Shown: positions 2,090 through 52,385, counted from the first letter of the stretch. The stretch is DNA of 64,000 nucleotides from an uncultured Planctomycetales bacterium (GCA_964483785.1 CAZACW010000002.1:16666-80665); one strand, 5' to 3'. Notes: a model not told the origin generated them from the letters alone. Translations and numbers: made by a program.

Positions 2090-2127
2090 TGGGTCCGATT
2101 GCAACACATTGAAAGGTCGCTTTAGTT

Positions 2128-2156: not shown

Positions 2157-2181
2157 TAGATGTTTTGGAAAGGATGAGATA

Positions 2182-2277: not shown

Positions 2278-2302
2278 GGGTCATTTTTGATTAAGGATCA
2301 GT

Positions 2303-2755: not shown

Positions 2756-2769
2756 AAGGAGGGATAAAT

Positions 2770-2949: not shown

Positions 2950-2954
2950 TTGGA

Positions 2955-3242: not shown

Positions 3243-3282
3243 AAATGCCACCTTTGATAAAACGATGGGGCAAGGCCGCCTT

Positions 3283-9253: not shown

Positions 9254-9272
9254 ACAATTATTTTAATACCAA

Positions 9273-9299
9273 CCATCACAACCCCGGGGGTTGTGATGG
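9273..9299. repeat. 27-nt GC-rich near-palindrome CCATCACAACCCCGGGGGTTGTGATGG (copy 1)
   Basis: Two 13-nt arms that are exact reverse complements flank a single central nucleotide. Read directly from the sequence. Confidence 0.9.
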
Positions 9300-9387
9300 T
9301 GTCTGCATTGTTTGTATCATATCAATATCGGACTTTTTAGACAAGTAGGGGATCAATTATGTAAGTTTGACATAACGCCATCTGTCG

Positions 9388-9537
9388 GAATGCAAGAATA
9401 TGTTTTTTCACCGCGACGCGCCCCCCAACCCCCCAAACGCGGCGCGTCGGAGCTACAAAAGAGAACATTTGTAAGCAGCTCCTGTGCGCCTGGGGGGAGA
9501 GCGCATCGCCTTATCAAAAACATATTCTTGCATTCCT
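9388..9537. repeat. 150-nt unit bounded by a 16-nt inverted repeat (GGAATGCAAGAATATG ... CATATTCTTGCATTCC). It encloses a GC-rich hairpin (CCGCGACGCGCC ... GGCGCGTCGG) with a C-rich loop.
   Basis: Reverse-complement matches read directly from the sequence. It lies between palindrome copies 1 and 2. Confidence 0.8.
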
Positions 9538-9544
9538 TAAAAAA

Positions 9545-9571
9545 CCATCACAACCCCCGGGGTTGTGATGG
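9545..9571. repeat. 27-nt near-palindrome CCATCACAACCCCCGGGGTTGTGATGG (copy 2, exact reverse complement of copy 1)
   Basis: Direct sequence match. It is followed 28 nt later by the consensus promoter. Confidence 0.9.
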
Positions 9572-9598
9572 TGGGGCGTGTATAATTTTTTATTTATA

Positions 9599-9626
9599 TT
9601 GACATGTTAAAGGCCGCTCTTATAAT
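9599..9626 (+). promoter_or_regulatory. Consensus sigma70 promoter (TTGACA, 16-nt spacer, TATAAT) heading the island
   Basis: A perfect -35 and a perfect -10. The first plus-strand gene of the island begins about 20 nt downstream. Confidence 0.5.
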
Positions 9627-9647
9627 GTTCATATATTGAACATTGCC

Positions 9648-10205
9648 ATGAATCCTCCTCAAGACTCCTTAGACGAACGGGAATTTGAATTGGTCAATAT
9701 CGTAGGCGCCGAACTCGGTGCCAATCAACGGGTTTTGTCCAAGCAATTGGATATTTCCCTTGGCATGACCAATATGCTGATCCGCCGTTTGGTCTCCAAG
9801 GGCTATATCCGCATCCGGCAGTTAAACAAGAAAAAGACCCAGTATATCCTCACCCCCAAAGGCTTTGCCGAAAAATACCAAAAATCCATCCGTTATACCT
9901 TAAAAACCATCCGCTCCATCGGCCTGATCCGCAATCAGTTAAACATCGTCATCCAGCGTCTTTATCAGGACGGGGAAAGGGTCTTTTTTATCCTCGGCAG
10001 TTCAGACCTGGCGGAATTGGTGGAAATGTCCCTTAGACAGCCCCAATGGGAGGGCGTGCAATTTAGCCGCGTGGAGGCAATTTCCGGCCATCCCGAAGGG
10101 GTGATCTTAATTTGCAGGGAGCAGGTCGAGGCTGTACCGTCAACCCCGGGCCGCTATGTCGATTTACTCAAGGAGCTGGCCAGCCAAAACAGGGAAGGAA
10201 TATGA
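9648..10205 (+). CDS. Winged-helix (MarR-like) transcriptional regulator
   Basis: About 185-aa product. Its N-terminal LSKQLDISLGMTNMLIRRLVSKGYIRI segment has HTH/wing character. An alternative TTG start lies at 9636. Confidence 0.5.
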   Translation: MNPPQDSLDEREFELVNIVGAELGANQRVLSKQLDISLGMTNMLIRRLVSKGYIRIRQLNKKKTQYILTPKGFAEKYQKSIRYTLKTIRSIGLIRNQLNIVIQRLYQDGERVFFILGSSDLAELVEMSLRQPQWEGVQFSRVEAISGHPEGVILICREQVEAVPSTPGRYVDLLKELASQNREGI

Positions 10206-12274
10206 TGATGCCAAAATCCGTTCCGGTTTCCTTTGTCGATTTTTCGCACACCGGCAAGACCATTGACACCCGGTTTTTCCCGTTGGGTGTGGCCTATGTG
10301 GCGGCCTATGCCAAGGAGCTGTTTAAGGAGCTCATCGACGTGGCCATTTACAAATATCCCAATGAATATTCCGCTTATTTGGACCAGACCATCCCCCAGG
10401 TGGCCTGCTTTTCCAATTTTTCCTGGAATTTCCGGCTGGGCTATGAATACGCGCGCCAGATCAAATTAAAATCCCCGCAGTCGATCACGGTCTTCGGCGG
10501 CCCCAATTACGGCCACCTGCCCCAAGAGCAGGAACAATTCCTCAAAGACCATCCCTACATCGATTTTTACATCGTGGAAGAAGGCGAATTCACTTTCGCC
10601 GCCCTGCTTAAGGAATTGATCGCGCGTGATTTTAACATCGATGCGCTCCTGCAGGACCGCCCCGGCCTGCCGGGGATCCATTATTTCAAGAACGGCTCAT
10701 TTACGCGCAATGACACCCAGCCGCGCATTCAGGAGCTGTCCGTGATCCCCTCGCCCATCCTCAACGGCATGATGGACAAATTTATCGCTGAAGAGTATAT
10801 CCCCATGATCCAGACCACCCGGGGCTGTCCCTATTCCTGCACCTTCTGCCATGACGGCAATGTGTACCAGAATAAACTGAAGCGTTTCCCCACGTCGCGC
10901 TACCAGGAGGAGATTGAATATATCGCCCGGCGCACCAAGGTGCCGCATCTGATGATCACGGACTTGAATTTCGGGATCTTTGAGGAGGATTTTGAGACCG
11001 CCCAGTTTATCGCAGAGATCAAAAAGAAATACCAATGGCCGCAGACCGTGGATTTGACCGCGGCCAAGAACAACAAGGAGCGCATCGGCCGCATCGTCGA
11101 GCTTTTCGGCAACACCTATCTCATGGGCGCCTCGGTGCAGTCCACGGACCCCGAGGTCCTGACCGCCATCAAAAGGTCCAATCTGCCCTTTGAGGAATTG
11201 GTGAGGATGGCCAAGAAATCCGCCCAATTCGGGGGCAACAGCTATTCCGAGGTGATTCTCTGCCTGCCGGGCGATTCCAAAAGGGCACATTTTAAGTCGG
11301 TCCTGGATTTGATGGACGGGCACATGGATGAGGTGCGCATGTACCAGTTCATTTTGCTCGCCGGCACCGCCGGCGGCTCCAACGAGGCCAGGCTGAAATA
11401 CGGGTATAAGACCAAATGGCGGGCCTTGCCGCGCTGTTTCGGCAAATACAAGATCTTCGGCCGGGAATTTCCCATCGCGGAAATCCATGAGGTCTGCATC
11501 GAGCACAAGACCATGAGCCATCAGGATTATTTGGACTGCCGCAAATTAAACCTGATCGTCGAGATTTTCAACAACGGCAAGGTCTTCGGCGAATTGTTCA
11601 GGTTCTCCGATTATCTGGGCATGTCCCGGGCCACCATCATCCAGGAAATTTACAACCGCGCCGTGAAAGACCAGGGGGAGATGGGGAAAATTTTCAGGGA
11701 TTTCGAGGAGAGCGAGGAAAAGAGCTTTTTCCCGTCGCGCCAGGCCCTGGAAGATTTTATTGCTGTACCGGAAAATATCGACCGCTATTTAAGGGGCGAG
11801 ATCGGCATCAATCAGATCATGACCTTTCGCGGGGAGGCGCTGTTGAACCATTTTGACTATAACGCCCGGCTGATCTTTGATGTGGTGCGCGATGAGCTTA
11901 AAAAGACCAATCAGTGGGACGAGGTCAAGGCCCTGTATTTGGATGAGCTGTGCGCCTACATCCTGGCCTGCCGCGGCGATCTTTTGAGCATCGACAAGGA
12001 GATCGTGAAAACCTGCCATTTTGATTTCGTCAAACTGTACCTGGACAATTTCACGGCCAATCCGAAGGACGTGATGGTCCAGGAAGGCATCCAGATCATC
12101 ATCGGGCATTCGCCTGAGCGGCGCAGGGAAATCGAGGAGAATTTGAAATTATACGGGCGTTCCGGCGAGGGCCTGGGCCATTACATGCAGCGCGGGAATA
12201 TTTTCAGGCTTTACCGCGAGCCGCGCTACGCACACGCGCCCATGCTGAAGGCCCAAGGGGCCGAGGTCAATTAA
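10202..12274 (+). CDS. Cobalamin-binding (class B) radical-SAM enzyme, probable methyltransferase
   Basis: The N-terminal Rossmann-like B12-binding region is followed by a CxxxCxxC cluster (TTRGCPYSCTFCHDG). The product is about 690 aa. The start overlaps the regulator's stop. Confidence 0.7.
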   Translation: MMMPKSVPVSFVDFSHTGKTIDTRFFPLGVAYVAAYAKELFKELIDVAIYKYPNEYSAYLDQTIPQVACFSNFSWNFRLGYEYARQIKLKSPQSITVFGGPNYGHLPQEQEQFLKDHPYIDFYIVEEGEFTFAALLKELIARDFNIDALLQDRPGLPGIHYFKNGSFTRNDTQPRIQELSVIPSPILNGMMDKFIAEEYIPMIQTTRGCPYSCTFCHDGNVYQNKLKRFPTSRYQEEIEYIARRTKVPHLMITDLNFGIFEEDFETAQFIAEIKKKYQWPQTVDLTAAKNNKERIGRIVELFGNTYLMGASVQSTDPEVLTAIKRSNLPFEELVRMAKKSAQFGGNSYSEVILCLPGDSKRAHFKSVLDLMDGHMDEVRMYQFILLAGTAGGSNEARLKYGYKTKWRALPRCFGKYKIFGREFPIAEIHEVCIEHKTMSHQDYLDCRKLNLIVEIFNNGKVFGELFRFSDYLGMSRATIIQEIYNRAVKDQGEMGKIFRDFEESEEKSFFPSRQALEDFIAVPENIDRYLRGEIGINQIMTFRGEALLNHFDYNARLIFDVVRDELKKTNQWDEVKALYLDELCAYILACRGDLLSIDKEIVKTCHFDFVKLYLDNFTANPKDVMVQEGIQIIIGHSPERRREIEENLKLYGRSGEGLGHYMQRGNIFRLYREPRYAHAPMLKAQGAEVN

Positions 12275-13273
12275 ATGGGCCAAAACGTTTTAGTGACAGG
12301 CGGGGCAGGGTTTATCGGCAGTCATGTGGTGGACCGTCTCTTAAGCGGCGGGCACAAGGTCACAGTCATCGATAATCTCTCAACCGGCCGCTGGGCGAAT
12401 ATCGAGCATCATCAGGCCAATCCGGATTTGACCTTTATCGAGGCGGATATCGCTGACTTTAACGCCATCGAAGGGCATTTTAAGGGCCAGCAGGTCGTTT
12501 TTCATCTGGCGGCCCTGGCAGATATTGTGCCGTCGATCGTCAACCCCCGGGGATATTATGCCGCCAATGTTTTAGGCACCATGCATGTACTGGAAGCTTC
12601 CAGGCTCCATGGGGTGGGCAGGTTTGTTTATACAGCTTCTTCATCGTGCTACGGCATTCCGGCCAAGGAGCATTACCCCACGGCGGAAACAGCGCCCATC
12701 CACACGGAATATCCTTACGCGCTGACCAAATACTTAGGAGAAACAACGGCCTTTCATTGGGCCAAGGTGTACAAACTGCCGGTGGTTTCTTTAAGACTTT
12801 TCAATGTTTACGGCCCGCGTGCGCGCACCTCAGGCACCTACGGCGCGGTGTTCGGCGTATTCCTGACCCAAAAGCTCAACGCCAAACCCTATACGGTGGT
12901 CGGCGACGGCCAACAGACCCGTGATTTCATCTATGTCAGCGACGTGGCCGAGGCTTTTGTTGCCGCCGGATTTTCCGCGGTGCAGGGAGCAATTTTCAAC
13001 GTAGGCACGGGCAAGCCGCAAAGCATCAATCATTTGGTGTCCCTGCTGGGAGGCGCAAAGGTGCATATCCCCAAAAGGCCGGGCGAGCCGGAATGCACCT
13101 GGGCGGATATCCGCAAGATCCAGGCCCAACTGGGTTTCACCCCCAAGGTCTCATTTGAAGACGGGGTGCAGAAAATTTTGAAACACATCGACTATTGGCG
13201 CGAGGCCCCGGTTTGGACGCCGCAGAGCATTCAGGAAGCGACCCAGGACTGGTTTAAATACCTCGTCCGGTAA
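12275..13273 (+). CDS. NAD-dependent nucleotide-sugar epimerase/dehydratase (extended SDR)
   Basis: GGAGFIGS glycine-rich NAD motif at the N-terminus and a YxxxK catalytic region. The product is 332 aa. Confidence 0.8.
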   Translation: MGQNVLVTGGAGFIGSHVVDRLLSGGHKVTVIDNLSTGRWANIEHHQANPDLTFIEADIADFNAIEGHFKGQQVVFHLAALADIVPSIVNPRGYYAANVLGTMHVLEASRLHGVGRFVYTASSSCYGIPAKEHYPTAETAPIHTEYPYALTKYLGETTAFHWAKVYKLPVVSLRLFNVYGPRARTSGTYGAVFGVFLTQKLNAKPYTVVGDGQQTRDFIYVSDVAEAFVAAGFSAVQGAIFNVGTGKPQSINHLVSLLGGAKVHIPKRPGEPECTWADIRKIQAQLGFTPKVSFEDGVQKILKHIDYWREAPVWTPQSIQEATQDWFKYLVR

Positions 13274-13312
13274 GCGATGATTATGGGCATTTGTTTGGTT
13301 CTTTTTGCTTCT

Positions 13313-13408
13313 CATCGGGTGGCCGAGGGAGGGGTCTACCCGCCGCGCGCAGGCTTTTGCGAGCACGGCGGGGAAACCCGAGGCCAGGACCCGATGAGTT
13401 GCTGAACA
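13313..13408 (+). other. Intergenic stem-loop (CTCATCGGGT ... ACCCGATGAG) enclosing about 75 nt of GC-rich sequence
   Basis: A 10-bp perfect inverted repeat lies in the 166-nt gap between the two epimerase genes. Confidence 0.3.
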
Positions 13409-13439
13409 GGATCGACTAAGGAAAGGACAATACACCATC

Positions 13440-14465
13440 ATGAACAAGATCAAGACGGTTTTAGTGACAGGCGGGGCCGGGTACGTCGGAGCGGTGCTGG
13501 TGCCGAAGCTTTTGGACAAAGGGTACACGGTCAAGGTGCTGGATTTGTACACCTATGGCGAGGATATTTTCGATGAGATCAAGGACAGGTCCAAGTTGGT
13601 CGAAATCAAGGGCGATATCTGCGACCAGGCCCTGCTGCGTCAATCTTTGCAAGGAACTGATGCGGTCATCCATCTGGCCTGCATTTCCAATGATCCTTCC
13701 TTTGAATTGAACCCGGAATTAAGTTTGAAGGTCAATTATGAGGCCTTTGAGCCCTTGGTCAAGATCAGCCGGGAAAGCGGGGTGAAGCGCTTCATTTACG
13801 CTTCCACCTGCAGCGTCTACGGCGTCAGCGACGCGCCCGAGGTGACCGAAGACCATCCGCTTCTGCCTATTACGGATTACAACAAGTATAAGGGCCTCTG
13901 CGAACCGATCTTGGCCCGCTACCAGTCCCCGGATTTTACCACCATCACCATCCGGCCGGCCACGGTCTGCGGCTATTCGCCCCGTCAGCGCTTTGATCTG
14001 ACGGTCAATATTCTGACTAATCATGCCTATCATAACAACCGCATCAAGGTCTTTGGCGGCAAGCAGGAGCGCCCCAATATCCATATCGGCGATATCACCA
14101 ACCTTTATGTGCAATTGTTGGAACTGCCCGAGGCCAAGATCGCCGGCAAGATCTACAACGCCGGCTTTCAAAACCGCGCGGTGGCGGATATCGCCCTCAT
14201 CGTGCAGAAGATCATGGCCCAGGAATTTCCGCAGAGGCCCCAGGCCGTGATCGAGACCGTGCCTTCGGATGATATCCGCTCCTACCGGATCTCCTCGGAG
14301 AAGATCAAAAGGGAGCTGGGGTTTGTGCCCGCATTTACCATCGAGGACGCGGTGAAGGACCTGATCAAAGCGTTGAAGGCTGGAAAATACCAGGACCCCA
14401 TGAACAATCCGCGCTATTTCAACATCAAGATGCTTAAATCCATGGAAGCGCAGGCCCAGGTTTAA
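13440..14465 (+). CDS. NAD-dependent nucleotide-sugar epimerase/dehydratase (extended SDR)
   Basis: TGGAGYVG motif. The product is 341 aa. Confidence 0.8.
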   Translation: MNKIKTVLVTGGAGYVGAVLVPKLLDKGYTVKVLDLYTYGEDIFDEIKDRSKLVEIKGDICDQALLRQSLQGTDAVIHLACISNDPSFELNPELSLKVNYEAFEPLVKISRESGVKRFIYASTCSVYGVSDAPEVTEDHPLLPITDYNKYKGLCEPILARYQSPDFTTITIRPATVCGYSPRQRFDLTVNILTNHAYHNNRIKVFGGKQERPNIHIGDITNLYVQLLELPEAKIAGKIYNAGFQNRAVADIALIVQKIMAQEFPQRPQAVIETVPSDDIRSYRISSEKIKRELGFVPAFTIEDAVKDLIKALKAGKYQDPMNNPRYFNIKMLKSMEAQAQV

Positions 14466-14475
14466 AGGACCCTTT

Positions 14476-16011
14476 ATGGACGAGAAAATCAGCAGAAAAA
14501 TCCTGCCGCTCAAAGAGCTGGCCAAACGCATCGAGGACAATAAGGCCAAGGGCCGCAAGGTGGTGCAGTGCCACGGGGTTTTTGACATCGTGCATCTGGG
14601 CCATGTGCGCCATTTTAACATGGCCAAAAAAGAGGGGGATGTCCTTTTGGTCACCCTCACCGCCGACCGTTTTGTCAAGCGGGGGCCGGGCCGGCCGATC
14701 TTCAATGAGGCCCTGCGCGCCGAGCATTTGGCCTCCTTGGCCATGGTGGATTTTGTCGGCATCATCGAGTCGGCGACGGCCACGGAATGCATCAAGATCC
14801 TCAAGCCCAATTTTTACGCCAAGGGCGTTGAATACAAAAACCACAGCCAGGACATCACGGGCAAGATCTCCGAGGAAGAAGAGGCCATCCAGTCCGTCGG
14901 CGGCAAGGTCGTCTACACCGATGATATCACCTTCAGCTCTTCCCAGATCATCAACTCGTACCTGGACGTGTTTCCTCAGCGGACCGTGCGCTATCTGCAG
15001 GCCATTGAGAAGCGTTTCCCCATTGAAACGATCATCGCCTCGATCGAGAAGATCAAAAGACTCAAGGCCCTGGTGATCGGGGATGCCATTATCGATGAGT
15101 ACCATTACTGCGTGCCCATGGGCAAGTCCTCCAAGGAACATTTGGTGGTCAACCGCTACACCTCCGAAGAGATGTTTGCCGGCGGAAGTCTGGCCACGGC
15201 CAATAATGTGGCCAGCATCTGCGGCCAGGTGGATTTGGTCACCATCCTGGGCCGGGAGAACACCAAGGAAGATTTCATCCGCAGCCGCCTGGCGCCCAAT
15301 GTCAAGCCGCGCTTCTTCTATCGGCCGGACACCAATACCATCATCAAGCGCCGTTTTGTCGGCGAGAACGCCAACCGCAAGCTCTTTGAAATCTGTTACA
15401 TGAAGGACAATGATATTGCCAGGAGGGAAGAATCCAATATCGCCCGGCACTTGGACAAGGTGATCGCGGATTATGATGTGGTGATCGTCTCGGATTTCGG
15501 CCACGGCCTTTTGACTAAGAATCTGATTGACCTGATCTGCGCCAAGTCCAAATACCTGGCGGTGAATGCCCAGACCAACAGCGCCAATATCGGCTTTAAT
15601 ATGGTCACCAAATATCCGCGGGCCAACTGCGTCTGCATCGACGAGCTGGAACTGCGCTTTGCCGCGCATGATAAATTCAACGATCTGCGCGAGCTGGCCA
15701 AGACCGTTTACAGCCAAATCGGCTGCCAATACATCATTGCCACCCGGGGCTCCTACGGGTCCCTGAGCTATTCCCAAGAGCATGGTTTCCATGAAACGCC
15801 GGCCTTTTCCTACCGTGTGGTGGATGCCATCGGCGCGGGGGACGCCTTTTTCGCCTTTGTGGCCCCGTGTTTTGCCAGCGGCATGCCGCAGGAACTGGTG
15901 TCCTTTATCGGCAACGCGGTGGGGTCCTTGGCTGTGCAGATCGTCTGCAACCGCGAACCGGTGAAGACCGTGGATTTGATCAAATTTATGACGAGATTGC
16001 TGAAATGCTAA
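14476..16011 (+). CDS. Bifunctional sugar-phosphate nucleotidyltransferase plus PfkB-family sugar kinase. It is HldE/RfaE-like but with the domain order reversed.
   Basis: The N-terminal HGVFDIVHLGH motif is the HxGH cytidylyl/adenylyltransferase motif. The C-terminus has the PfkB kinase GAGD motif (DAIGAGDAF). Confidence 0.65.
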   Translation: MDEKISRKILPLKELAKRIEDNKAKGRKVVQCHGVFDIVHLGHVRHFNMAKKEGDVLLVTLTADRFVKRGPGRPIFNEALRAEHLASLAMVDFVGIIESATATECIKILKPNFYAKGVEYKNHSQDITGKISEEEEAIQSVGGKVVYTDDITFSSSQIINSYLDVFPQRTVRYLQAIEKRFPIETIIASIEKIKRLKALVIGDAIIDEYHYCVPMGKSSKEHLVVNRYTSEEMFAGGSLATANNVASICGQVDLVTILGRENTKEDFIRSRLAPNVKPRFFYRPDTNTIIKRRFVGENANRKLFEICYMKDNDIARREESNIARHLDKVIADYDVVIVSDFGHGLLTKNLIDLICAKSKYLAVNAQTNSANIGFNMVTKYPRANCVCIDELELRFAAHDKFNDLRELAKTVYSQIGCQYIIATRGSYGSLSYSQEHGFHETPAFSYRVVDAIGAGDAFFAFVAPCFASGMPQELVSFIGNAVGSLAVQIVCNREPVKTVDLIKFMTRLLKC

Positions 16012-17132
16012 ACAAAATCAAAATTCCCTATACGCATTTGGGGGCCCAGCACGCTAGGATCAAGCAGAGGCTGATGGCGGCCGTGGAAGAGGTCTTGGAA
16101 AGCGGCAAATTCATCCTGGGCCCGCCGGTCGAGGCCTTTGAGGCCCGCTTCGCGTCATTGTGCGGCAGGAAATTTGCCGTCGGCGTCGGCAACGGCACGG
16201 ACGCCCTGGTCCTGGCCTTAAAAATTTTAGGCATCGGGCCCGGCGATGAAGTGATCACCGTGGCCAATACCTTTGTTTCAACGGTCAGCAGTATTGTGAT
16301 GGCAGGGGCAAGGCCGGTATTCGTCGATGTCCGGGACGATTACAATATCGACCCTGGTCTCGTCGAGAAGGCCATCACCCCTCGGACCAAGGCCATTTTA
16401 CCCGTGCATTTGACCGGCCGGCCGGCGGACATGGACCCGCTCATGGCCCTGGCCAGGCAGTACGGCTTGAAGGTGGTCGAAGACTGTGCCCAGGCCGTCG
16501 GCGCCCAGTATAAGGGCCAGAAGGTTGGCAGTTTCAGCGATATCGCGTGCTTTAGCCTTCATCCTTTGAAAATCCTCAATGCCTGCGGCGACGGCGGGGT
16601 GATGGTCACGGATAATCCGCAATATGAGGCTGCATGCAGGGTCCTGCGCGATAACGGCATGAAGGACCGCGGTGAATGCGCGGCCTTTTCCAGCAATTCC
16701 AGGCTGGACTCCATCCAGGCCGCCATTTTGCTGGTGAAAATGGATTATATCGAGGCCTGGACCCAGAAGAGAATCGCCAACGCGCAATTCTACCAGCAGG
16801 CCTTGGCCAAGATGGAGCATATCCATTGTCCGGCTGACCAGCCTTACGTAAAATCCGTATACTCGTCCTTTGTGATCCAGGCCAAGCAGCGCGATCAGCT
16901 TAAAAGTTTTCTCGAGGAGAAGGGGATCGCCACCAAGATCCATTATCCCATCCCTGTGCATTTACAGCCTGCGGCGCAAAGCCTTGGCTACAGGCAGGGG
17001 GATTTGCCGGTGACGGAAAAACAAGCCCGGCAAATCCTAAGCCTTCCGGTTTATCCGGAGTTGACCCAGGAAGAACTTAAAGAAATTGTCCGGTTATTGG
17101 GGGCATTTGATCTGGAGAAAGTCAACGCATGA
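16005..17132 (+). CDS. DegT/DnrJ/EryC1/StrS-family PLP-dependent sugar aminotransferase
   Basis: GxGDEVI motif, a conserved lysine region and a length of about 375 aa. The start overlaps the previous gene. Confidence 0.85.
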   Translation: MLNKIKIPYTHLGAQHARIKQRLMAAVEEVLESGKFILGPPVEAFEARFASLCGRKFAVGVGNGTDALVLALKILGIGPGDEVITVANTFVSTVSSIVMAGARPVFVDVRDDYNIDPGLVEKAITPRTKAILPVHLTGRPADMDPLMALARQYGLKVVEDCAQAVGAQYKGQKVGSFSDIACFSLHPLKILNACGDGGVMVTDNPQYEAACRVLRDNGMKDRGECAAFSSNSRLDSIQAAILLVKMDYIEAWTQKRIANAQFYQQALAKMEHIHCPADQPYVKSVYSSFVIQAKQRDQLKSFLEEKGIATKIHYPIPVHLQPAAQSLGYRQGDLPVTEKQARQILSLPVYPELTQEELKEIVRLLGAFDLEKVNA

Positions 17133-18232: not shown

Positions 18233-18250
18233 TTGTTGGGAGCCAAGGCC

Positions 18251-20129: not shown

Positions 20130-20132
20130 GTC

Positions 20133-21071: not shown

Positions 21072-21084
21072 GTCAACATAGGTT

Positions 21085-21141
21085 CCACCACAACCCCCGG
21101 GGTTGTGGTGGTAACCATCACAACCCCGGGGGTTGTGATGG
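21085..21141. repeat. Tandem pair of the 27-nt near-palindrome (copy 3 variant CCACCACAACCCCCGGGGTTGTGGTGG, copy 4 canonical). It is followed by the CATATTCTTGCATTCC motif.
   Basis: Direct sequence match. The variant copy carries compensating changes on both arms (T to C paired with A to G), so pairing is preserved. Confidence 0.9.
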
Positions 21142-21212
21142 TCACATATTCTTGCATTCCTTGAAGAATAGGGAATATGTCGAACAAGCAACAGTTTCTC
21201 AAGGAGGTTGAG

Positions 21213-21875: not shown

Positions 21876-21884
21876 GAGGAGATT

Positions 21885-22922: not shown

Positions 22923-22935
22923 CAAAGAACACAAG

Positions 22936-26836: not shown

Positions 26837-26841
26837 AAAAT

Positions 26842-30282: not shown

Positions 30283-30300
30283 AACGCAGGGAGGTAAGGT

Positions 30301-32917: not shown

Positions 32918-32929
32918 GAAGGGTCGACG

Positions 32930-34702: not shown

Positions 34703-34728
34703 TATGCATTCGAGCGTAAGGAGTGAAG

Positions 34729-39315: not shown

Positions 39316-39319
39316 GCCT

Positions 39320-40507: not shown

Positions 40508-40512
40508 GGAGC

Positions 40513-43269: not shown

Positions 43270-43284
43270 GATGAGGAGGGGACC

Positions 43285-43458
43285 ATGGAAGAACAATTGC
43301 TTAAAGGTAATTTCAAGGTCAAACATCCCGTGAAGCAGAAGCCCAAGAAGGACGCTCCGACCTTTTTGGAAGAATACAAGAAAAAGGCCATGGGCTCGAT
43401 CGGAGGCAGCATGGTCTACATGGAGCGCGGCCAGATGACCTGGGACGGAGACCAATAG
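43285..43458 (+). CDS. 57-aa small protein (MEEQLLKGNFKVKHPVKQKPKKDAPTFLEEYKKKAMGSIGGSMVYMERGQMTWDGDQ)
   Basis: A perfect SD (GAGGAGGGG) lies 5 nt upstream of the ATG. The ORF sits in the 192-nt gap of an otherwise overlapping gene array and is below the ORF-track cutoff. Confidence 0.5.
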   Translation: MEEQLLKGNFKVKHPVKQKPKKDAPTFLEEYKKKAMGSIGGSMVYMERGQMTWDGDQ

Positions 43459-43461
43459 CCC

Positions 43462-44484: not shown

Positions 44485-44496
44485 CCCAGGGGACCC

Positions 44497-46080
44497 ATGG
44501 CCAAAATCCTGATGATCAATCCAGTGGTGAGGGAAGAAGACGATCCCAAGCATATCCCCTACGGCATTGCCCTGCTGGCGGCCATTGCCGTCGAAAAAGG
44601 GCATCTCGTCCAGATTTACGACGAGAACGCCTGGCGCAAAGGCCTGGAGGTGGTGGAGCAGGTCTGCCGGGCCGATGATTGGGACGTGATCGCCATCGGC
44701 GGATTGACGACAACCTACGGTTCCATCAAGAAAATCCTTCAAATATGCCGCAAGGTCTGTCCCCAGGCCTTCATCGTGGCCGGCGGCGGATTCTTGACCA
44801 GCATGCCCAAGGAAATGCTCTCCTGGCTGCCGGAAATCGATATCGGCATCATGGGAGAGGCTTTTGCCACATGGCCTGATATCCTTGAAAAGATAGACCG
44901 CAAGGACCTTGATTTCTCCAAGACCTTAGGGGTCTGTTTCCGCGCTCAAGACGGCAAGGTCACCATCACCAACGTGCGGTCCAATATCCATGACCTGGAT
45001 GTCCTGCCGTATCCGGCCTGGGACCTGCTGCCCTTGGAGATATACTTTAAAAATTCCAGCACCACCTACTCCGAAGCCGGCTTTCTGGCCAAGCGGCGCA
45101 TCGATGTGATGGGCTCCTTAGGCTGCAGCCTGATCTGCAAATTCTGCTGGCATTTGGGTACCACCGGCGACATGGTGGTGGAAAAAGACGAGAAGGGCGA
45201 GAATGATGTCCGTTTCACCTACGGCCGCAATATCCGCTATCACAGCCCGCGCTACATTGTCAACATGGTCAAGACCCTCAGGGACAAATACCAGGTGGAT
45301 TTTGTCAGTTTTATCGATGAAAATTTGATGACTATGGACGTGGCCAGCGGCCGCACCTGGCTTAAAGAACTGTGCGCCTTGTGGATCGAGGAAGGGCTGC
45401 AGCCGACGTCCCGGCGCGACGGTGTCCCGGACAATGAGAACAAGGGGGGCGTGTTCTGGGCCGGGACCAGCCATGCCAGCCTTTCCAACAAGGAAATCCT
45501 GCAGATCATGTACAAGGCCGGCTGTTCCCATCTGGTCTACGGCATTGAGTCCTTTGATCCGGTGATCCTCAAAAATTTGGGCAAGGGCGTCAACCAAAAC
45601 CATAATTTGAACGCCCCGCGGATCTGCATGGAAACCGGCATCATCCCCATCCCCAACATCATCATTGGCTTCCCCCTGGAAACATTCCAAAGCGTGCGCA
45701 CCACCATCGAATGCCTGATCAAACTGGGCATTCACTGCAAGCCGCATTTTGCCACACCCTACCCAGGCTCCGAGTGGTATTATGCCTACAAGGAGTCGAT
45801 CCTGGAGCAATACAACGGCGATCTGGAGAAGTTCATCATGGACTTGGGCGATGCCTCCAAAATTTCAGCTGTGATTTCCCATCAATTCTCGCCCATGCAG
45901 CTTTTGGGCCTGCAGCAGATTGTGATGCAGCGGGACCTGAGGCTGTTGGCATTGGCGGAAAAGCATTGGGGCAAGGCTGATGAGCTGGTGCGGCCCCTGG
46001 CCGTGCCCCGGGAGTCCTTCAACATTGTCAAGGCCAAGGTCAAGGCGCCGATGGAAGAAGAGACCAAGGCTTCCTTATAA
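44497..46080 (+). CDS. Cobalamin-binding (class B) radical-SAM enzyme (second copy)
   Basis: An N-terminal B12-binding Rossmann region is followed by a CxxxCxxC cluster (GCSLICKFCWH). The product is 527 aa. Confidence 0.7.
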   Translation: MAKILMINPVVREEDDPKHIPYGIALLAAIAVEKGHLVQIYDENAWRKGLEVVEQVCRADDWDVIAIGGLTTTYGSIKKILQICRKVCPQAFIVAGGGFLTSMPKEMLSWLPEIDIGIMGEAFATWPDILEKIDRKDLDFSKTLGVCFRAQDGKVTITNVRSNIHDLDVLPYPAWDLLPLEIYFKNSSTTYSEAGFLAKRRIDVMGSLGCSLICKFCWHLGTTGDMVVEKDEKGENDVRFTYGRNIRYHSPRYIVNMVKTLRDKYQVDFVSFIDENLMTMDVASGRTWLKELCALWIEEGLQPTSRRDGVPDNENKGGVFWAGTSHASLSNKEILQIMYKAGCSHLVYGIESFDPVILKNLGKGVNQNHNLNAPRICMETGIIPIPNIIIGFPLETFQSVRTTIECLIKLGIHCKPHFATPYPGSEWYYAYKESILEQYNGDLEKFIMDLGDASKISAVISHQFSPMQLLGLQQIVMQRDLRLLALAEKHWGKADELVRPLAVPRESFNIVKAKVKAPMEEETKASL

Positions 46081-47025
46081 TTGTCGACCATGAACATCGT
46101 GATCTTTGGTTTGGGTTCAATCGGCCGGCGCCATGCCGGGATTTTGCGCAAGCATTTTTCCCATGATCTGGCTGCCTTTCGCAGCCGCAGGTCAGGAGCC
46201 CGGCGCCCTGTGGCGGGGATCAGAGAAATCTATACATGGCAGGAGCTGGAAGCTTTCAGGCCTGATGCGGCCTTTATCACCAACCCGACGTATTTGCACA
46301 TTCCAACCGCCCTGCGCTGCGCCGGCTTAGGCATGCACCTGTTCATTGAAAAACCTCTTTCCCACTCTCTGGAGGGGATCGCCCGGCTGGGCCGAATTTG
46401 CCGTCGCAAGAAACTGAGCTGTTATGTGGCCTACGGCCTGCGTTTTCATTCGGTGGTCCAGCGCCTGCGCCAAAAAATTAAGGGCAAAAAAATTGCGCAT
46501 GTGCGCATCGTCTGCTCATCCTATCTGCCGGACTGGCGTCAGGGGCCGCAGGCCAGGCAGGCCTACTCAGGCAAGGCCAAGGAGGGAGGGGGCGTGCTCT
46601 TGGATCTGTCCCATGAATTCGATTATATCCGGTATTTATTCGGTGATTTTAAGATCAGGTCCGGCGTCTTTGCCAGGGCCGGCAAGGTTTCTGTGGATGC
46701 TGAGGACTTTGCGGATGTGTTAATGACTGCGTCCCGCGCGCCGCACATCAATATGCATATCAATTATCTAAGCCGCAGTCAGGAACGGCGCATCGTGATT
46801 GACCATGATAAAGGCACCATCACCGCAGACTTGCTGCGCCAAACGCTGGAGATCAGGGAAGGCCGCAGGCTGAAGATTGAGCGGCTCAAAGGAAGCAGGG
46901 ATGATTATTTGAAAAAACAGACGAGGTATTTTTTCGGCCATATCGGCCGGCCTGGCCTTATGAATGATTGGCAGGAAGCCGGGGATACCTTGGCCAAGAT
47001 TTTAGAGTTCAAGCGCCATGCGTGA
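46081..47025 (+). CDS. Gfo/Idh/MocA-family NAD(P)-dependent oxidoreductase (PtmF-like)
   Basis: IFGLGSIGRRH Rossmann motif. An alternative ATG lies at 46090. Confidence 0.75.
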   Translation: MSTMNIVIFGLGSIGRRHAGILRKHFSHDLAAFRSRRSGARRPVAGIREIYTWQELEAFRPDAAFITNPTYLHIPTALRCAGLGMHLFIEKPLSHSLEGIARLGRICRRKKLSCYVAYGLRFHSVVQRLRQKIKGKKIAHVRIVCSSYLPDWRQGPQARQAYSGKAKEGGGVLLDLSHEFDYIRYLFGDFKIRSGVFARAGKVSVDAEDFADVLMTASRAPHINMHINYLSRSQERRIVIDHDKGTITADLLRQTLEIREGRRLKIERLKGSRDDYLKKQTRYFFGHIGRPGLMNDWQEAGDTLAKILEFKRHA

Positions 47026-47734
47026 AAAAATCCTTTTGACCATATGTGCCAGGAAGGGCTCAAAAGGGGTCAAGAACAAAAACATCAGGGACCTTTGCGG
47101 CCGGCCTTTGATCGCCCATTCCATCCGTCAGGCCTTGTCCTGGGGCAAGGCGGACAAGGTCATTTGCACGACGGATTCCGAGGCCATTGCCGCCATAGCC
47201 CGCCAATGCGGGGCCGAGGTGCCTTTTATGAGGCCGGCGCATTTGGCCACGGACTCCATCGGCAAGCTCCCTGTCCTGCAGCATGCCCTGCGCGAGACCG
47301 AGCGCCTGACCGGCGAACGGTTTGATGTTTTGCTGGACTTAGACAGCACTGCTCCGGTGAGGACCGTCCAGGACATAGACAAGGCCCTGAAGATTTTCAA
47401 GCAAAGCAAGGCCAAGTCCGTCTTCAGTGTGACCCCATGCCGCAAAAATCCCTATTTCAACATGGTGGAGACCGATGCAAGAGGGTATTATCGTCTGGTC
47501 AAGAAATTGAAAAATCCTTTTATGAGCCGGCAAGCCGCGCCCAGGGTCTATGACCTGAACGCCTCCATTTATGTGTACAGCCGCCAATACCTTTTGGATC
47601 CCAAAACCAAGACACCGGTGTCCGACAGGTCCAAGGTGCTGGTGATGGAGGAATGGTCGGCCTTTGACATTGACCATGAGTCTGATTTTCAATTTATTGA
47701 ATTTTTGGTCAACAAAGGATTGGTCAAACTATGA
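47018..47734 (+). CDS. neuA: CMP-nonulosonic-acid synthetase (acylneuraminate cytidylyltransferase family; NeuA/LegF/PseF)
   Basis: The N-terminal ICARKGSKGVKNKN segment matches the family signature. The product is 238 aa. Confidence 0.8.
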   Translation: MREKILLTICARKGSKGVKNKNIRDLCGRPLIAHSIRQALSWGKADKVICTTDSEAIAAIARQCGAEVPFMRPAHLATDSIGKLPVLQHALRETERLTGERFDVLLDLDSTAPVRTVQDIDKALKIFKQSKAKSVFSVTPCRKNPYFNMVETDARGYYRLVKKLKNPFMSRQAAPRVYDLNASIYVYSRQYLLDPKTKTPVSDRSKVLVMEEWSAFDIDHESDFQFIEFLVNKGLVKL

Positions 47735-48519
47735 TCGATTACCGCCGCATGTTTTCGCTCGCCGGCAAGGCCGTGGTGGTGACCGGAGGCTGCGGCTTGC
47801 TGGGCCGTGAAATCGTGACTGCCTTGGCCCAGGCCGGGGCCAGGGTCGTGATCGCGGACATTAATGCCAAGCAGGGACGGCAGCTGGCCAAGATATTGGG
47901 GCAGGAAGGCCTGAAGGTCTTTTACTGTCCTTTGGACATCACGGCTATCAAAGATCTCAAGGCCAACATGCAAACGCTCTTCCGCCGGCAGGGCCCCATT
48001 CACGGCTGGATCAATTGCGCCTATCCCAGGACCAAGGATTGGGGGGCCAAGGCCGAGCATATCCGCTCAAGGTCCTGGCAAAAAAACATCGACATGCATT
48101 TGAATGCGTATGCCTTAAGTTCCCTCTATGCCGCCCAGGCCCTCAAGAAAACCAAAGGATGCATCATCAATTTAGGGTCCATTTACGGGTCAGTGGGTCC
48201 GGATTTCAGCATCTATGAAGATACCAAGATGACCATGCCTGCCGCCTATGCAGCGATCAAGGGCGGCATCGACAGCATGGGCCGGTACCTGGCTTCGTAT
48301 GTCGGGCCCTTTGGCGTCAGGGTGGCCACGGTCTGCCCCGGCGGAATTTATGACGGTCAAGATCCCTCCTTCGTCAAGAAATACGCGGCCAAAACCTGCC
48401 TCAAGCGCATGGCCAAGGCCCAGGAAGTGGCCTCGGTCGTGGCCTTTCTCGTCTCAGACGCTGCTTCTTATATTACAGGGGCCACCATTATGGTGGATGG
48501 GGGTTGGACAGCTGTTTAG
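47731..48519 (+). CDS. Short-chain dehydrogenase/reductase (PtmA-like)
   Basis: VVVTGGCGLLG glycine-rich motif and a YAAIKGG catalytic YxxxK region. Confidence 0.75.
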   Translation: MIDYRRMFSLAGKAVVVTGGCGLLGREIVTALAQAGARVVIADINAKQGRQLAKILGQEGLKVFYCPLDITAIKDLKANMQTLFRRQGPIHGWINCAYPRTKDWGAKAEHIRSRSWQKNIDMHLNAYALSSLYAAQALKKTKGCIINLGSIYGSVGPDFSIYEDTKMTMPAAYAAIKGGIDSMGRYLASYVGPFGVRVATVCPGGIYDGQDPSFVKKYAAKTCLKRMAKAQEVASVVAFLVSDAASYITGATIMVDGGWTAV

Positions 48520-50108
48520 GCGCCGGTGAAGTGGTCGGTGGCCAGGTTGCCGGTCTCCCGGTCGATGCAATACCAAATGCCGTTGTAATTGGTGGTCTGG
48601 TGCTCGAACCAGATCACGCCTGCCTCACGGATATGCGGCCAGCAATCCTTGAAAATATCGTCCCCGTGGATCACCGCAACTCCATTTAAAACACGGATCG
48701 GGTAATGGTTGATCACATGCTCGGTGCCGGTGTCTGTAAAGATCCGCAGGGTGATGGTATTGTCCGGGTTGGTGGCGCAGCCGCCGGCCGTGATAATGGC
48801 GTAATCATTGCGGAAGGCCTTGAAAATCGGCGCCATTTTCAGGCAGCGGTAGGATTTCGGCTGCGGGTTGGAATCATTGTACAGGCCATAGGATGATTCG
48901 GTGTGGGTCTGGTCAGCCAGGCGATTTGAGCCCCGGTAATACACATGCACGTAACAGATCGGTTTGACGGCAAATTCATTCACATCACGCTTGAATTCCA
49001 CCACACAATTGACGCTGCCCTGGATGTCTTCCTTTGCGAAAACCTTGGCCAGATCGCATCCTGATTGATCATCCTGAAAAACGACGTCCCGGCTGGAAAT
49101 CAGCGCGCCGTCTTCCGTGAACAGCTTCAGGGTCATGGCCTCTACGGGGAAACCGATTTCATCCTCGCTGATGCGCAGCAGGGGCGCGTTGTGTTTAAAA
49201 TTCGGTATGTAAAAGCCGGTGGTGCAAGGATGAGGATGACGGTTGGCGGATGGCGTATTTTTGATATTGCGCCGGTTGCTGTTGCAATTGTCATGCCAGA
49301 TGGCCAGGGGAATGCCGTCTCCGTCATGGATGATGCAAAAGCCGTTGGCCCCTTTCAAGGGGGATTTAGTCTGGGCCACGGTGAACAATGCCTTGGGGCC
49401 GACAGCCTCAATGTCCTGCCGGGAACCGGCGAAATTGGACAGATAGGCCATGTGGCCGTCGGGCAGATAACCGCGGTAACAGAGGCTCGTGCGCGGCAAA
49501 TAGGACTTTAACGGCGCTGGGATGGAATGTACGCCGGCCATCAGCCCCTTGGCCTGGTCATGGAAAAAGACAAAGAACCTAAATTCGTTTTCCGGGGTCT
49601 TGAGGCGCGGATGAAAGACTTCTAAAAGCACGATACCTTGCTCCGGCAGGGCCGCGGCATCAGCCTCATGGCCGATAGTATTGAAATATTTCACTTCATT
49701 GGGCTTGAACACATACTGTTTGGACCAAAAATGCTCATTTTCCTTCATGATGGAGAGGCGGATCAAAAGAGGGTCCCGGATGCTGTAATTGCGCTGGCAA
49801 AAATTAAACAGCAGGATATGGGTGATGCCTTTTCGGAAAGGGACATAGGCACTGACAAAGGCCGAAGCAGCATCAGGCACCATATCTTCGGGACTGGTCT
49901 GCCCGTAGTAGGCCGAGAACAGGGTGGGCATGAATTTTTCCGGCGGGATGATCTTGGCTTGAGGATATTGTTTGAGGTAATGCGCCTGCAGGACCCGGTT
50001 GTAATAGGGCGGGCAGGCCTTGAAGTATTTGACGGCCAGCTCATTGGTTTTTTCCAGGCCGATCCATTTCGAGAGCAATTCGATTTTTGACATAAAGATT
50101 TCCTTCAA
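48516..50108 (-). CDS. Large hypothetical protein (530 aa) on the opposite strand. I recognise no domain.
   Basis: An uninterrupted ORF convergent with the upstream array, with an AT-rich promoter region on its 5' side. No motif is recognised. Confidence 0.5.
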   Translation of the reverse strand: MKEIFMSKIELLSKWIGLEKTNELAVKYFKACPPYYNRVLQAHYLKQYPQAKIIPPEKFMPTLFSAYYGQTSPEDMVPDAASAFVSAYVPFRKGITHILLFNFCQRNYSIRDPLLIRLSIMKENEHFWSKQYVFKPNEVKYFNTIGHEADAAALPEQGIVLLEVFHPRLKTPENEFRFFVFFHDQAKGLMAGVHSIPAPLKSYLPRTSLCYRGYLPDGHMAYLSNFAGSRQDIEAVGPKALFTVAQTKSPLKGANGFCIIHDGDGIPLAIWHDNCNSNRRNIKNTPSANRHPHPCTTGFYIPNFKHNAPLLRISEDEIGFPVEAMTLKLFTEDGALISSRDVVFQDDQSGCDLAKVFAKEDIQGSVNCVVEFKRDVNEFAVKPICYVHVYYRGSNRLADQTHTESSYGLYNDSNPQPKSYRCLKMAPIFKAFRNDYAIITAGGCATNPDNTITLRIFTDTGTEHVINHYPIRVLNGVAVIHGDDIFKDCWPHIREAGVIWFEHQTTNYNGIWYCIDRETGNLATDHFTGA

Positions 50109-50219
50109 TAAGGCGGGGTTGATTTAATTGTAGTACACTTTTTTTTAAATGTAAAAATATAATTCGCTTTTAAGTTGCGACCTTTTAAATTTCTTGTTTT
50201 TCTGTTAATATCAACGCCT

Positions 50220-52364
50220 ATGGTCCAAAATCAAAGTTTTCCGAAGTCGATTTATGTCGAGTTATTGACCCTTCGACTTTGGCTGGACAGCTTGGCCCCT
50301 CTCCTGCGGCGGCTCGGCCGGAAAAATCCTTCCTTAAAACCCTGTTGTTATGTTTTTGATGCCACCTGGCCGGGCTTGATGCTGGCCCGCTGGACCGCCA
50401 AGCAGGAGGGGTTTGTGGTCCAAAAATTGGATTTTCAGATCACGGATGTCCGGGATGAACAAGGCCGCTTCGCTTATTGGCGCGCGGCCCATCAGGACAT
50501 GATTGAAATCCAGCAGCTGATGCTGTCATCCGAAATATTTCATTCCTTCACCCGAGATTTAGATCCCGCTTCCAATGCGCGTTATTACCTGGCCAAGGTC
50601 CCGGTGTATATTTATGATTTTTACGGGCATGAAAAATATGCCCAGGCCTGGCACGTGGCGATGATGGCCCAGATTGCCGGATGGCACGGCCGCCGGCAGC
50701 ACCCGCCTGCGACGGAGTATCAACTGTTTATCATTGAACGTCCCTGGATGGATGTCCTTCGGCAATATCTGCGGTCCCATGGCGGGCATTTGGCATCGCT
50801 TGGCCCCGTGCAGTTAAGGCGCTGGGCATGGTCAAAGCTTTTTGCCAAATTTAAAAAATTAAATTTCCGGATGGCGGCCGGCCTGGTCCGGCGCAAAATT
50901 TTTGACTTCAAGCTCCGGCGCGGCCTGGCCCGGTCCAAGCCGTATTTTGCGCCGGAGAAAGCCAGGATCATGACGGAATTTTGCGGCCAGTTGAATTTCG
51001 ACGATCCTGTTTTACATAGCGATCTTTTTTTCTGCGATGGAAAAAACCTTTCCTATGAAGATTTGCTGGTGACCTTTAATCTGTCCAAATCACCCATCGA
51101 CGCTCAAAGATACGGGCTGTTAGAATCCCATCACCTGGCTGCCGTGGCCATGTCCCCGCAAGCCTCGGTGGTGGATCCGTCCCTGATCGAGGTTTTCCGT
51201 CCCCAGCGGCACAATAGCACCCTACCCTTGGAGGCGCAGGAGAGCAGTGCGGAATATCGGGTATTGCGGGGTTTGCGGGAAGATTATTGCCGGACCAAGG
51301 AGCAATGGTCCCAATTTTTTAAGCGTTATAATATCAAACTGCACAACAGCTGGATCAATTATGACCCTGCTCAAATGGCCATGGCCGAGGCCTTGGCTGA
51401 ATTAGGGGGGATTTCCTGCATTTACCAGCGTTCTTATGAGCCCCATCCCTGTCCCCAGCTTGCTGTCTGCACGGACATCATCTTCAGTTTTGCCCCGGTG
51501 AAATACGAGGCCATGCGTGCCAATTACGGCCGCTTCCGTTATCACGCGGCCGTGGGTTATGTGGGCGATTACCGTTTTGGGCCGTCTCAATCCATGGCCA
51601 TGGACCTGCGCCGTAAAATCCAGGCCCATGGGGCCCAACAGATCATTGCCTATTTCGACGAGAATACCATTGATGACGGCCGCTGGTATATGGGGCATAA
51701 ACTGTTGAGGGACAATTACCGCTTCTGGTTGGAACAATTATTGAAATTCCCTACCCTTGGCCTGATCTTTAAACCCAAGGTGCCCAGCACCCTGCCCCGT
51801 CGGCTTGGAGAAGTCCACGGGCTTTTGCAGGAAGCGGAAAAGACCGGACGTTGTTATGTGTTCAGGGAAGGCCAGATGCAGGGCCTTTACCCTCCGGCTG
51901 TGGCGGCCCTGGCTGCGGACATGGCCATCCACGATTCCATCATCTCCGGCACGGCGGGCATGGAATCCGCCTTGGCCGGCGTGCCGACCTTGATCATGGA
52001 CCTGGAAGGATGGCCTCCCAGCCCCTTGCATCAATTGGGCAAGGATGTTGTTTTCAAGGATTGGCCGCAGGCCTGGCAGGCCTGCCAAAATTATTTCAAG
52101 GATCCTAAAACCTACAGGCATATCGGGGATTGGTCATCCTATAAGCAGGAACTGGACCCCTATCAGGACGGGAAGGCCGTTGAACGTTTGAGTGAATGCC
52201 TGAAATGGATGCTGGAAGGCCTGCGCGCCGGCCGGCATCGGGACGCGGTGATGGATGAGGTCATGGAGCGATTTGCACAGAAGTGGGGGAAGGACAAGGT
52301 CCAATCAGGAGACCATCACAACCCCCGGGGTTGTGATGGTCCATCACAACCCCGGGGGTTGTGA
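50220..52364 (+). CDS. Large hypothetical protein with a GT-B-like C-terminal half. The C-terminal 20 codons are encoded by the palindromic repeat.
   Basis: The C-terminal ISGTAGMESALAGVPTL segment resembles the GT-B acceptor-domain Gly-rich/E/A-G-xP motif. The start is chosen at the first ATG outside the AT-rich region, with an alternative at 50175. The stop lies inside repeat copy 6. Confidence 0.45.
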   Translation: MVQNQSFPKSIYVELLTLRLWLDSLAPLLRRLGRKNPSLKPCCYVFDATWPGLMLARWTAKQEGFVVQKLDFQITDVRDEQGRFAYWRAAHQDMIEIQQLMLSSEIFHSFTRDLDPASNARYYLAKVPVYIYDFYGHEKYAQAWHVAMMAQIAGWHGRRQHPPATEYQLFIIERPWMDVLRQYLRSHGGHLASLGPVQLRRWAWSKLFAKFKKLNFRMAAGLVRRKIFDFKLRRGLARSKPYFAPEKARIMTEFCGQLNFDDPVLHSDLFFCDGKNLSYEDLLVTFNLSKSPIDAQRYGLLESHHLAAVAMSPQASVVDPSLIEVFRPQRHNSTLPLEAQESSAEYRVLRGLREDYCRTKEQWSQFFKRYNIKLHNSWINYDPAQMAMAEALAELGGISCIYQRSYEPHPCPQLAVCTDIIFSFAPVKYEAMRANYGRFRYHAAVGYVGDYRFGPSQSMAMDLRRKIQAHGAQQIIAYFDENTIDDGRWYMGHKLLRDNYRFWLEQLLKFPTLGLIFKPKVPSTLPRRLGEVHGLLQEAEKTGRCYVFREGQMQGLYPPAVAALAADMAIHDSIISGTAGMESALAGVPTLIMDLEGWPPSPLHQLGKDVVFKDWPQAWQACQNYFKDPKTYRHIGDWSSYKQELDPYQDGKAVERLSECLKWMLEGLRAGRHRDAVMDEVMERFAQKWGKDKVQSGDHHNPRGCDGPSQPRGL

Positions 52365-52377
52365 TGGTCTCCTGATC
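52303..52377. repeat. Tandem pair of the 27-nt near-palindrome (copies 5 and 6) nested inside a further inverted repeat (CAGGAGA ... TCTCCTG). The whole 75-nt stretch is one near-perfect palindrome.
   Basis: Direct sequence match. Copy 6 is the exact reverse complement of copy 5. Only the single central nucleotide breaks the overall symmetry. Confidence 0.9.
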
Positions 52378-52385
52378 AAAAACAT

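Follow-up and report, generated by a model that had tools for sequence, protein, structure and literature searches.

The 64,000-nucleotide stretch of DNA analysed here (GCA_964483785.1 CAZACW010000002.1:16666-80665; 'the window' denotes this whole 64 kb stretch) contains six copies of a GC-rich palindrome of 27-29 nucleotides (nt), palindrome A, which lie as inverted pairs at three gene junctions: site 1 (9.3-9.6 kb), site 2 (21.1 kb) and site 3 (52.3 kb). Palindrome A is probably a lineage-specific, non-autonomous, hairpin-forming repeat of the repetitive extragenic palindrome (REP) or REPIN (REP in inverted doublets; PMC3116915) kind, or a palindromic miniature inverted-repeat transposable element (MITE). 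Three explanations had been offered in an earlier interpretation made from the DNA alone (the sequence-only reading), namely a REP/MITE-like element family, a terminator or insulator, and a set of operators bound by the neighbouring winged-helix regulator, and the first of these is the best supported. The A units are additions: they came to lie at gene junctions, in inverted doublets, where orthologous DNA has none, and at site 3 they displaced a stop codon. Identical GC-rich palindromes, a location at junctions only, inverted doublets, restriction to one lineage and a damaged gene end together make up a REP/REPIN signature.

Palindrome A can be written as CCAYCACAACCCC(S)GGGGTTGTGRTGG or as CCATCACAACCCC(S)GGGGTTGTGATGG, with S denoting a centre base that is either C or G. 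A search of the window with the pattern CCATCACAACCCCSGGGGTTGTGATGG, in which up to three mismatches were allowed, returned six matches (at 9273, 9545, 21085, 21115, 52313 and 52341), compared with 0.00 expected from 100 dinucleotide-preserving shuffles, and thus confirmed the six copies and the opposite centres within each pair that had been described previously. Five of the six are the same except for the centre base or orientation, and four extend to a 29 nt palindrome (A-27mer-T). The centre bases are G/C at site 1, C/G at site 2 and C/G at site 3, so that all three pairs are inverted. The asymmetry of the unit is limited to this one base, and there is no GTAG-like motif. The remaining copy, at 21085, carries a symmetric double substitution (CCACCAC...GTGGTGG, i.e. 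T4>C plus A24>G) that leaves the arms complementary, as the sequence-only reading had noticed. No decayed or additional copies were detected in the window beyond the number expected by chance (four extra half-sites with two mismatches, compared with 2.6 expected).

At site 3, the two copies are part of a perfect 73 nt palindrome (52304-52376) that consists of ATCAGGAGA, copy 5 (52313-52339, centre C), a single T, copy 6 (52341-52367, centre G) and TCTCCTGAT, with arms of 36 nt around a 1 nt centre. This corrects the sequence-only reading, which had given a 75 nt near-perfect palindrome bracketed by CAGGAGA and TCTCCTG. The open reading frame (ORF) 50175-52364, encoding 729 residues, reads across both copies: copy 5 is translated in the C-terminal tail (..GDHHNPRGCDG..) and copy 6 holds the TGA (52362-52364) that terminates the frame, such that the doublet encodes the last 16 residues of the protein (the pair overlaps the last 17 codons) and the next gene begins 21 nt further on. 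The 729-residue protein has 17 homologues, and the ten that were aligned end three or four residues past a conserved ..WGKDKVxxG, whereas the window protein, which is identical to the NCBI record P0001, goes on with GDHHNPRGCDGPSQPRGL, the translation of the two A copies. The best homologue (P0002; 55% identity) is syntenic (locus L083) and is separated from its next gene by an ordinary 50 nt spacer, and the syntenic junction in L081 is likewise an ordinary short spacer. Because the homologues stop after WGKDKVxxG and the syntenic junctions carry such spacers, the doublet has taken the place of the final codons and original stop that this conserved gene once had. The left-hand 9 nt of the palindrome (ATCAGGAGA, encoding ..V Q S G D) are ancestral coding sequence and the right-hand 9 nt (TCTCCTGAT) are their inverted copy. 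The third pair had been described as separating two large genes; it does lie at their junction, but it is not strictly intergenic, as ORF 50175-52364 runs through both copies.

The two genes that meet at this junction, 50175-52364 and 52386-54185 (599 residues), are adjacent and have no Pfam match. The 729-residue protein has 18 matches, its own NCBI record included, among 5.8 billion proteins. The gene pair is syntenic in another metagenome-assembled genome (MAG), where it stands beside nonulosonic-acid genes, and may encode glycan transferases or polymerases.

The window derives from an uncultured Omnitrophota bacterium, since its MetF is at most 71% identical to its homologues and the top 13 matches (60-71%) are from MAGs labelled Candidatus Omnitrophota or uncultured Planctomycetales. 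Comparison of orthologous loci found A absent from the syntenic junctions in L083 and L081 and from the regions upstream of the regulator gene in three orthologous loci (L001, L003 and L004), in which the second repeat described below (unit B) is also absent. An exact scan with the degenerate 27-mer gave no match in 185,579 species-representative genomes or in JGI metagenome contigs. The 19-mer core of A had no match in IMG/VR viral contigs and three isolated matches in metagenome contigs; these lack the outer arms and are treated as chance. When 80 related loci were scanned de novo for palindromes, no A-like family recurred in other Omnitrophota, and a protein-database search with A-encoded peptides (HHNPRGCDG, ITTPGVVMV and others) yielded 335 word-sharing candidates, none of which scored, such matches being too short. 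The repeats themselves are present in the sequencing reads, since the Logan contigs L087 and L088 (run SRR12313480), which were assembled independently from reads, have the same right-hand junctions as the window; an artefact of the MAG assembly is therefore ruled out. Exact look-ups with proteins of the window (MetF, P0001, the membrane protein, the regulator with two alternative starts and a 96-residue ORF across site 1) led to two contigs of this run only, both short. Both contigs begin inside an A copy (L087 at 1-40 and L088 at 1-60), and the break in L087 is fully explained by the edge of the 73 nt palindrome at k = 31 and is uninformative on copy number.

Hairpins or palindromes were noticed in two other loci as well. 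The first 450 nt of L084 (JGI Ga0115006_10291211) are non-coding and contain about five hairpins built on the stem core of A (CCACAACCC(C) ... GGGGTTGTG) with loops of C, TTT or AA; the likeness may be a coincidence or may reflect a shared DNA-binding or hairpin motif. In L005, from an Omnitrophica WOR_2 MAG, region 1926-2019 holds two 28 nt palindromes, GCAAAACTAATTTCCTAATTAGTTTTGC and GCAAAAGTAATGGAAACATTACTTTTGC, which are 66 nt apart and differ symmetrically, hinting that other Omnitrophota have paired palindromic repeats of their own.

With a length of 27-29 nt and arms of 13-14 nt, the A unit is able to form a stem-loop. A single copy is predicted to fold with -22.4 kcal/mol as RNA, the very stable hairpin that the sequence-only reading had anticipated, and with -14.5 kcal/mol as DNA. 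The corresponding predicted values are -53 and -30.7 kcal/mol for the site 2 pair and -73.9 and -46.8 kcal/mol for the 73 nt palindrome of site 3.

The textbook candidate for the spread of REP-type sequences is a tyrosine transposase of the IS200/IS605 type with an HUH motif (RAYT, the REP-associated tyrosine transposase, or TnpA-Y1). By analogy, an A unit, or more likely an inverted doublet, would fold into a hairpin in single-stranded DNA during replication, and an enzyme acting in trans, from a gene elsewhere in the genome, would copy it into further extragenic positions. Insertions within genes would be purged by selection, so that junction copies alone would persist. Synthesis or repair templated by the hairpin would keep the arms symmetric, producing the 'compensated' variant at 21085, and could extend the palindrome into its flanks, producing the 9 nt inverted flank copy at site 3. 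We infer such templating because the variant is changed in both arms and because ATCAGGAGA at site 3 reappears inverted as TCTCCTGAT, the outcome expected of fold-back copying of one A copy plus its flank. The double substitution at 21085 had been held to argue for selection on structure; the change is real, but its value as evidence for selection is weak, since a palindrome corrected on its own hairpin as template would end up the same with no selection at all.

Side effects on the host are likely to follow from the stability of these structures, as hairpins of -22 to -74 kcal/mol would be present in the polycistronic transcripts of the glycan operon and in the 5' leader of a membrane-protein gene. 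Going by Escherichia coli REPs and the Correia elements of Neisseria, A hairpins could stand in the way of 3' exonucleases, dampen read-through, delay ribosomes close to a stop codon or provide substrates for RNase III.

The resemblance to REPs and REPINs, as known from the bacterial interspersed mosaic elements (BIMEs) of E. coli and the GI-GIII groups of Pseudomonas fluorescens SBW25, extends to several features. These are short (20-40 nt) GC-rich extragenic palindromes that are bound to one lineage and near-identical within a genome; they occur mostly as inverted doublets that fold as one long hairpin, and compensatory changes in the stem are common (PMC3116915). A differs from them in being almost fully symmetric, in having no GTAG-type 5' tetranucleotide and in its spacers of 1-3 or 245 nt.

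Several observations weigh against this assignment. The copies are known from 64 kb of a 100,979 nt contig only, and the range that they span, 9.3 to 52.4 kb, belongs to a single glycan island or its edge. No transposase or RAYT was found by Pfam among the approximately 58 genes of the window, and no direct repeat that could represent a target-site duplication flanks any of the three sites, the flank duplication at site 3 being inverted. In the REPs that have been described, the palindrome is imperfect and the transposase can distinguish the strands by this asymmetry, whereas A is symmetric but for its centre. The spacers within A doublets are 1, 3 or 245 nt, compared with tens of nucleotides in REPINs; in SBW25 the spacing is 71-110 nt from start to start (PMC3116915). 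The absence of decayed copies implies either a recent expansion or a sequence that is conserved for some other reason. In addition, simple spread of a REP does not account for the association of A with unit B.

Unit B, ACATATTCTTGCATTCCTT (extendable to ATCAAAAACATATTCTTGCATTCCTTRAARAA), is present in three copies in the window (9385-9403 on the minus strand, 9520-9538 and 21144-21162), compared with 0.03 expected, and two of the three lie within 2-7 nt of an A copy. At site 1, the inverted copy occupies 9385-9409 (AAAAAACATATTCTTGCATTCCGA on the minus strand) and the full form on the plus strand, ATCAAAAACATATTCTTGCATTCCTTAAAAAA, extends over 9513-9544 and abuts A copy 2. The site 2 copy, ACATATTCTTGCATTCCTTGAAGAA (21144-21168, plus strand), begins 2 nt beyond A copy 4. 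A 13 nt match to the 5' part of the unit, ATCAAAAACATAT (52374-52386, plus strand), runs into the ATG of the gene that follows site 3 (52386) and, taken alone, could be due to chance. Reading the TTGCAT of unit B as a sigma-54 promoter was rejected: the GG-to-GC spacing at site 2 is 2 nt too long and site 1 has no GG.

Site 1 takes up most of a 394 nt gap between the divergent genes of a membrane protein (start at 9253, minus strand) and the winged-helix regulator (ATG at 9648). Copy 1 (9272-9300, centre G, the 29 nt form ACCATCACAACCCCGGGGGTTGTGATGGT) lies 19 nt upstream of the membrane-protein gene start, and copy 2 (9544-9572, centre C), its exact inverted partner 272 nt away, is followed on the minus strand by TTTTTT. 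Together they bound a 301 nt composite (9272-9572) of nested inverted repeats, arranged as A(G), 88 nt, inverted B, 108 nt with a GC-rich hairpin, B, 7 nt and A(C). It has terminal inverted repeats of 29-32 nt with 97-100% identity, contains no credible ORF and is predicted to form one long structure with a minimum free energy of -156.9 kcal/mol (z = -12.8). The whole composite is present as a single copy in the window, and nothing similar was found in 1.3 Mb of related loci. A BLAST search with the 321 nt region 9262-9582 against plasmid and phage collections gave no match, and Rfam reported nothing at gathering thresholds in the window, with only noise around site 1. The gap that holds site 1 is a variable spot in the lineage, as suggested by L001: there, the stretch between the orthologues of the regulator and membrane-protein genes (6340-8200) holds several short ORFs in a row on the minus strand, which look like pieces of one larger gene, possibly a pseudogene. 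At site 2, the order is A'(C), TAA, A(G), TC, B. Copy 3, the variant A' (21085-21111, centre C, T4>C plus A24>G), begins 13 nt past the stop of the gene for the transketolase C-terminal subunit (21071); after the intervening TAA, copy 4 (21114-21142, centre G, 29 nt form) lies 35 nt ahead of a methyltransferase ATG (21177).

Correia elements of Neisseria are transcribed into a long RNA hairpin that is cut by RNase III. Like these elements and other palindromic MITEs, the 9272-9572 composite has terminal inverted repeats of 29-32 nt and occupies a promoter region, and it could similarly carry an outward promoter and form a long RNA hairpin. It differs in that one full composite was seen, with no target-site duplication, and in that the A ends also occur as abutting doublets, which Correia ends do not. 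Site 3 resembles the Rickettsia palindromic elements (RPEs) in that a palindromic repeat is in frame within a protein-coding gene; RPEs, however, are 100-150 nt long and internal to genes, whereas A replaced the extreme C-terminus and supplied a new stop.

A different origin was considered, in which A is a non-mobile RNA structure selected by the host, having arisen or been copied locally, that serves as an intercistronic hairpin to end, attenuate or process transcripts or to insulate segments of the operon. The stems are very stable, the compensated variant retains its stem, and the pairs at 21.1 and 52.3 kb lie between co-directional genes; in the general form of a GC-rich stem-loop after a gene, A resembles a Rho-independent terminator, and copy 2 read on the minus strand is a textbook stem followed by six T residues. 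This copy (9572->9544) is the only one that passed a terminator-like scan. The other five have no T-run, including both pairs in the co-directional operon, so that the terminator or insulator option of the sequence-only reading is weak. Rho-independent terminators are also not identical in sequence from site to site, independent functional hairpins in general not normally being the same over 27 bases, and the genes on either side of site 1 diverge, which leaves no transcript to be ended there. Moreover, the syntenic operons of relatives do without A, and the site 3 copy damaged a gene end instead of following it neatly. We therefore regard a host-selected RNA structure as unlikely, and the copies are not canonical intrinsic terminators, given the missing T-runs and the divergent orientation at site 1.

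Inverted arms around a near-symmetric core are the typical layout of the core sites of tyrosine recombinases, and A can be read in this way, as inverted arms of 10-11 nt and a 7 nt core (CCCSGGG) that is asymmetric at its centre only. A could then be the target of a site-specific recombinase. The copies at 9272-9300 and 9544-9572 would enclose an inverton, a promoter segment of 243 nt able to invert, with the gene of a surface-glycan membrane protein on one side and the regulator and glycan operon on the other; at 21.1 and 52.3 kb, the doublets provide sites in both orientations and could allow whole glycan modules to be inverted or deleted. The two site 1 copies form an exact inverted repeat with a spacing of 272 nt, a size usual for invertons, in the region of divergent promoters with which a nonulosonic-acid/glycan island begins; every copy of A was seen within this island or at its edge. 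Within the segment, a promoter-like site (9344->9316, TTGTCT-17-TATGAT with an upstream TG; 9/12 match) faces the minus-strand gene. With such a promoter, the arrangement would parallel fimS and the capsule invertons of Bacteroides, where a surface-glycan locus is headed by some 250 nt that contain a promoter and are enclosed by inverted repeats. Unlike those systems, no recombinase gene is found by Pfam in the window, and A occurs in addition as abutting doublets, which with a spacing of 1-3 nt have nothing to invert. Since the sites are near-palindromic, any two copies would look inverted, and three pairs with opposite centres would arise once in eight by chance. A recombinase target is accordingly quite improbable. 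The fuller version, in which an unlinked recombinase acts on the A sites so that a phase-variable 243 nt promoter and invertible or excisable glycan blocks constitute a modular system of surface-glycan variation, seems to us more doubtful still. If true, it would mean surface-glycan variation by recombination in an uncultured, possibly host-attached Omnitrophota bacterium; it is the one reading of high interest, and only a recombination system would open a long-standing question.

It is very improbable that A serves as the operator of a dimeric DNA-binding protein, whether this be the winged-helix regulator next to it (9648-10205) or one that controls glycan genes globally. A has perfect dyad symmetry, one pair adjoins the regulator gene and copies stand upstream of three genes. 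However, a perfect promoter of the sigma-70 type, TTGACA-16-TATAAT (9599-9643), stands ahead of the regulator gene; its -10 region and transcription start are overlapped by another palindrome, AATGTTCA-N5-TGAACATT, and both promoter and palindrome are conserved upstream of the regulator orthologues in three Omnitrophota MAGs (L001 at about 6100-6150, L004 at about 8790-8850 and L003 upstream of 379), none of which carries A there. This comparison contradicts the operator set suggested by the sequence-only reading; judging from the conservation, AATGTTCA-N5-TGAACATT, not A, is probably the autoregulatory operator. In addition, an operator would seldom have arms as long as 13 nt so tightly set around a 1 nt centre, and the site 3 pair is in coding sequence, 20 nt ahead of the next start codon. 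Three further classes were rejected: an integron attC site (the roughly 50 operon genes have three sites between them, A has no GTTRRRY core and the window has no integrase), a retron (no reverse transcriptase in the window) and a CRISPR array (no cas gene in the window), the repeat architecture being wrong for all three.

If A is indeed a REP/REPIN-style repeat, it extends this type of element to Omnitrophota, a candidate phylum known almost solely from MAGs, in a form that is unusually symmetric and tightly paired. Our literature search found no REP family or palindromic repeat for Omnitrophota, and none seems to have been described in this phylum, the kind of element itself being familiar. 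It also bears on how widely hairpin-mobilizing transposases are distributed; one class of IS200/IS605-type Y1 transposases with atypical flanking structures has been reported chiefly from Planctomycetes, Acidobacteria and Proteobacteria (PMC6006769). Site 3 illustrates a repeat rewriting the C-terminus and the stop codon of a gene, and its perfect 73 nt palindrome with an inverted flank copy would be a neat natural case of palindrome growth. Such palindromes fragment short-read (k-mer) assemblies and can add spurious tails to predicted proteins, for example to P0001.

The approximately 58 genes of the window start with two membrane proteins and a small low-GC islet of toxin-antitoxin-like genes, followed on the minus strand by metH, metF and the gene of a 459-residue membrane protein. 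From 9648 onwards, the winged-helix regulator (9648-10205, 185 residues) and about 45 tightly packed genes for nucleotide-sugar, nonulosonic-acid, methylation and sulfation chemistry are on the plus strand. No integrase or recombinase was identified by Pfam among these genes, as was the case for transposases and RAYTs. In our gene model 1.8% of the window is non-coding, and all three A sites are gene junctions. The pairs had been said to sit exactly at functional seams; the location at junctions holds, but the seams are three of the few gaps of a compact window and are mostly made by the repeats themselves.

Three further regions deserve mention. The islet (2090-3282), of small genes with a GC fraction of about 0.44 between a DUF6159 gene and metH, looks like an insertion of the toxin-antitoxin type. 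Besides a DUF2442 gene (2955-3242) and two tiny ORFs, it holds a PIN-domain-like gene in two parts (2303-2449 and 2450-2755), which an in-frame TAA has apparently separated. A 166 nt intergenic region between two epimerase/dehydratase genes (13274-13439) is predicted to form a long GC-rich stem (-68.9 kcal/mol, z = -3.4); Rfam gave no match for it, and a processing site is conceivable, as is a leader or riboswitch-like element. Finally, an apparent gap ahead of an MptE-like gene contains an ORF of 57 residues (43285-43458) that is probably a real small protein, and on the syntenic contig of P0002 a gene of 56 residues has been called at the matching position.

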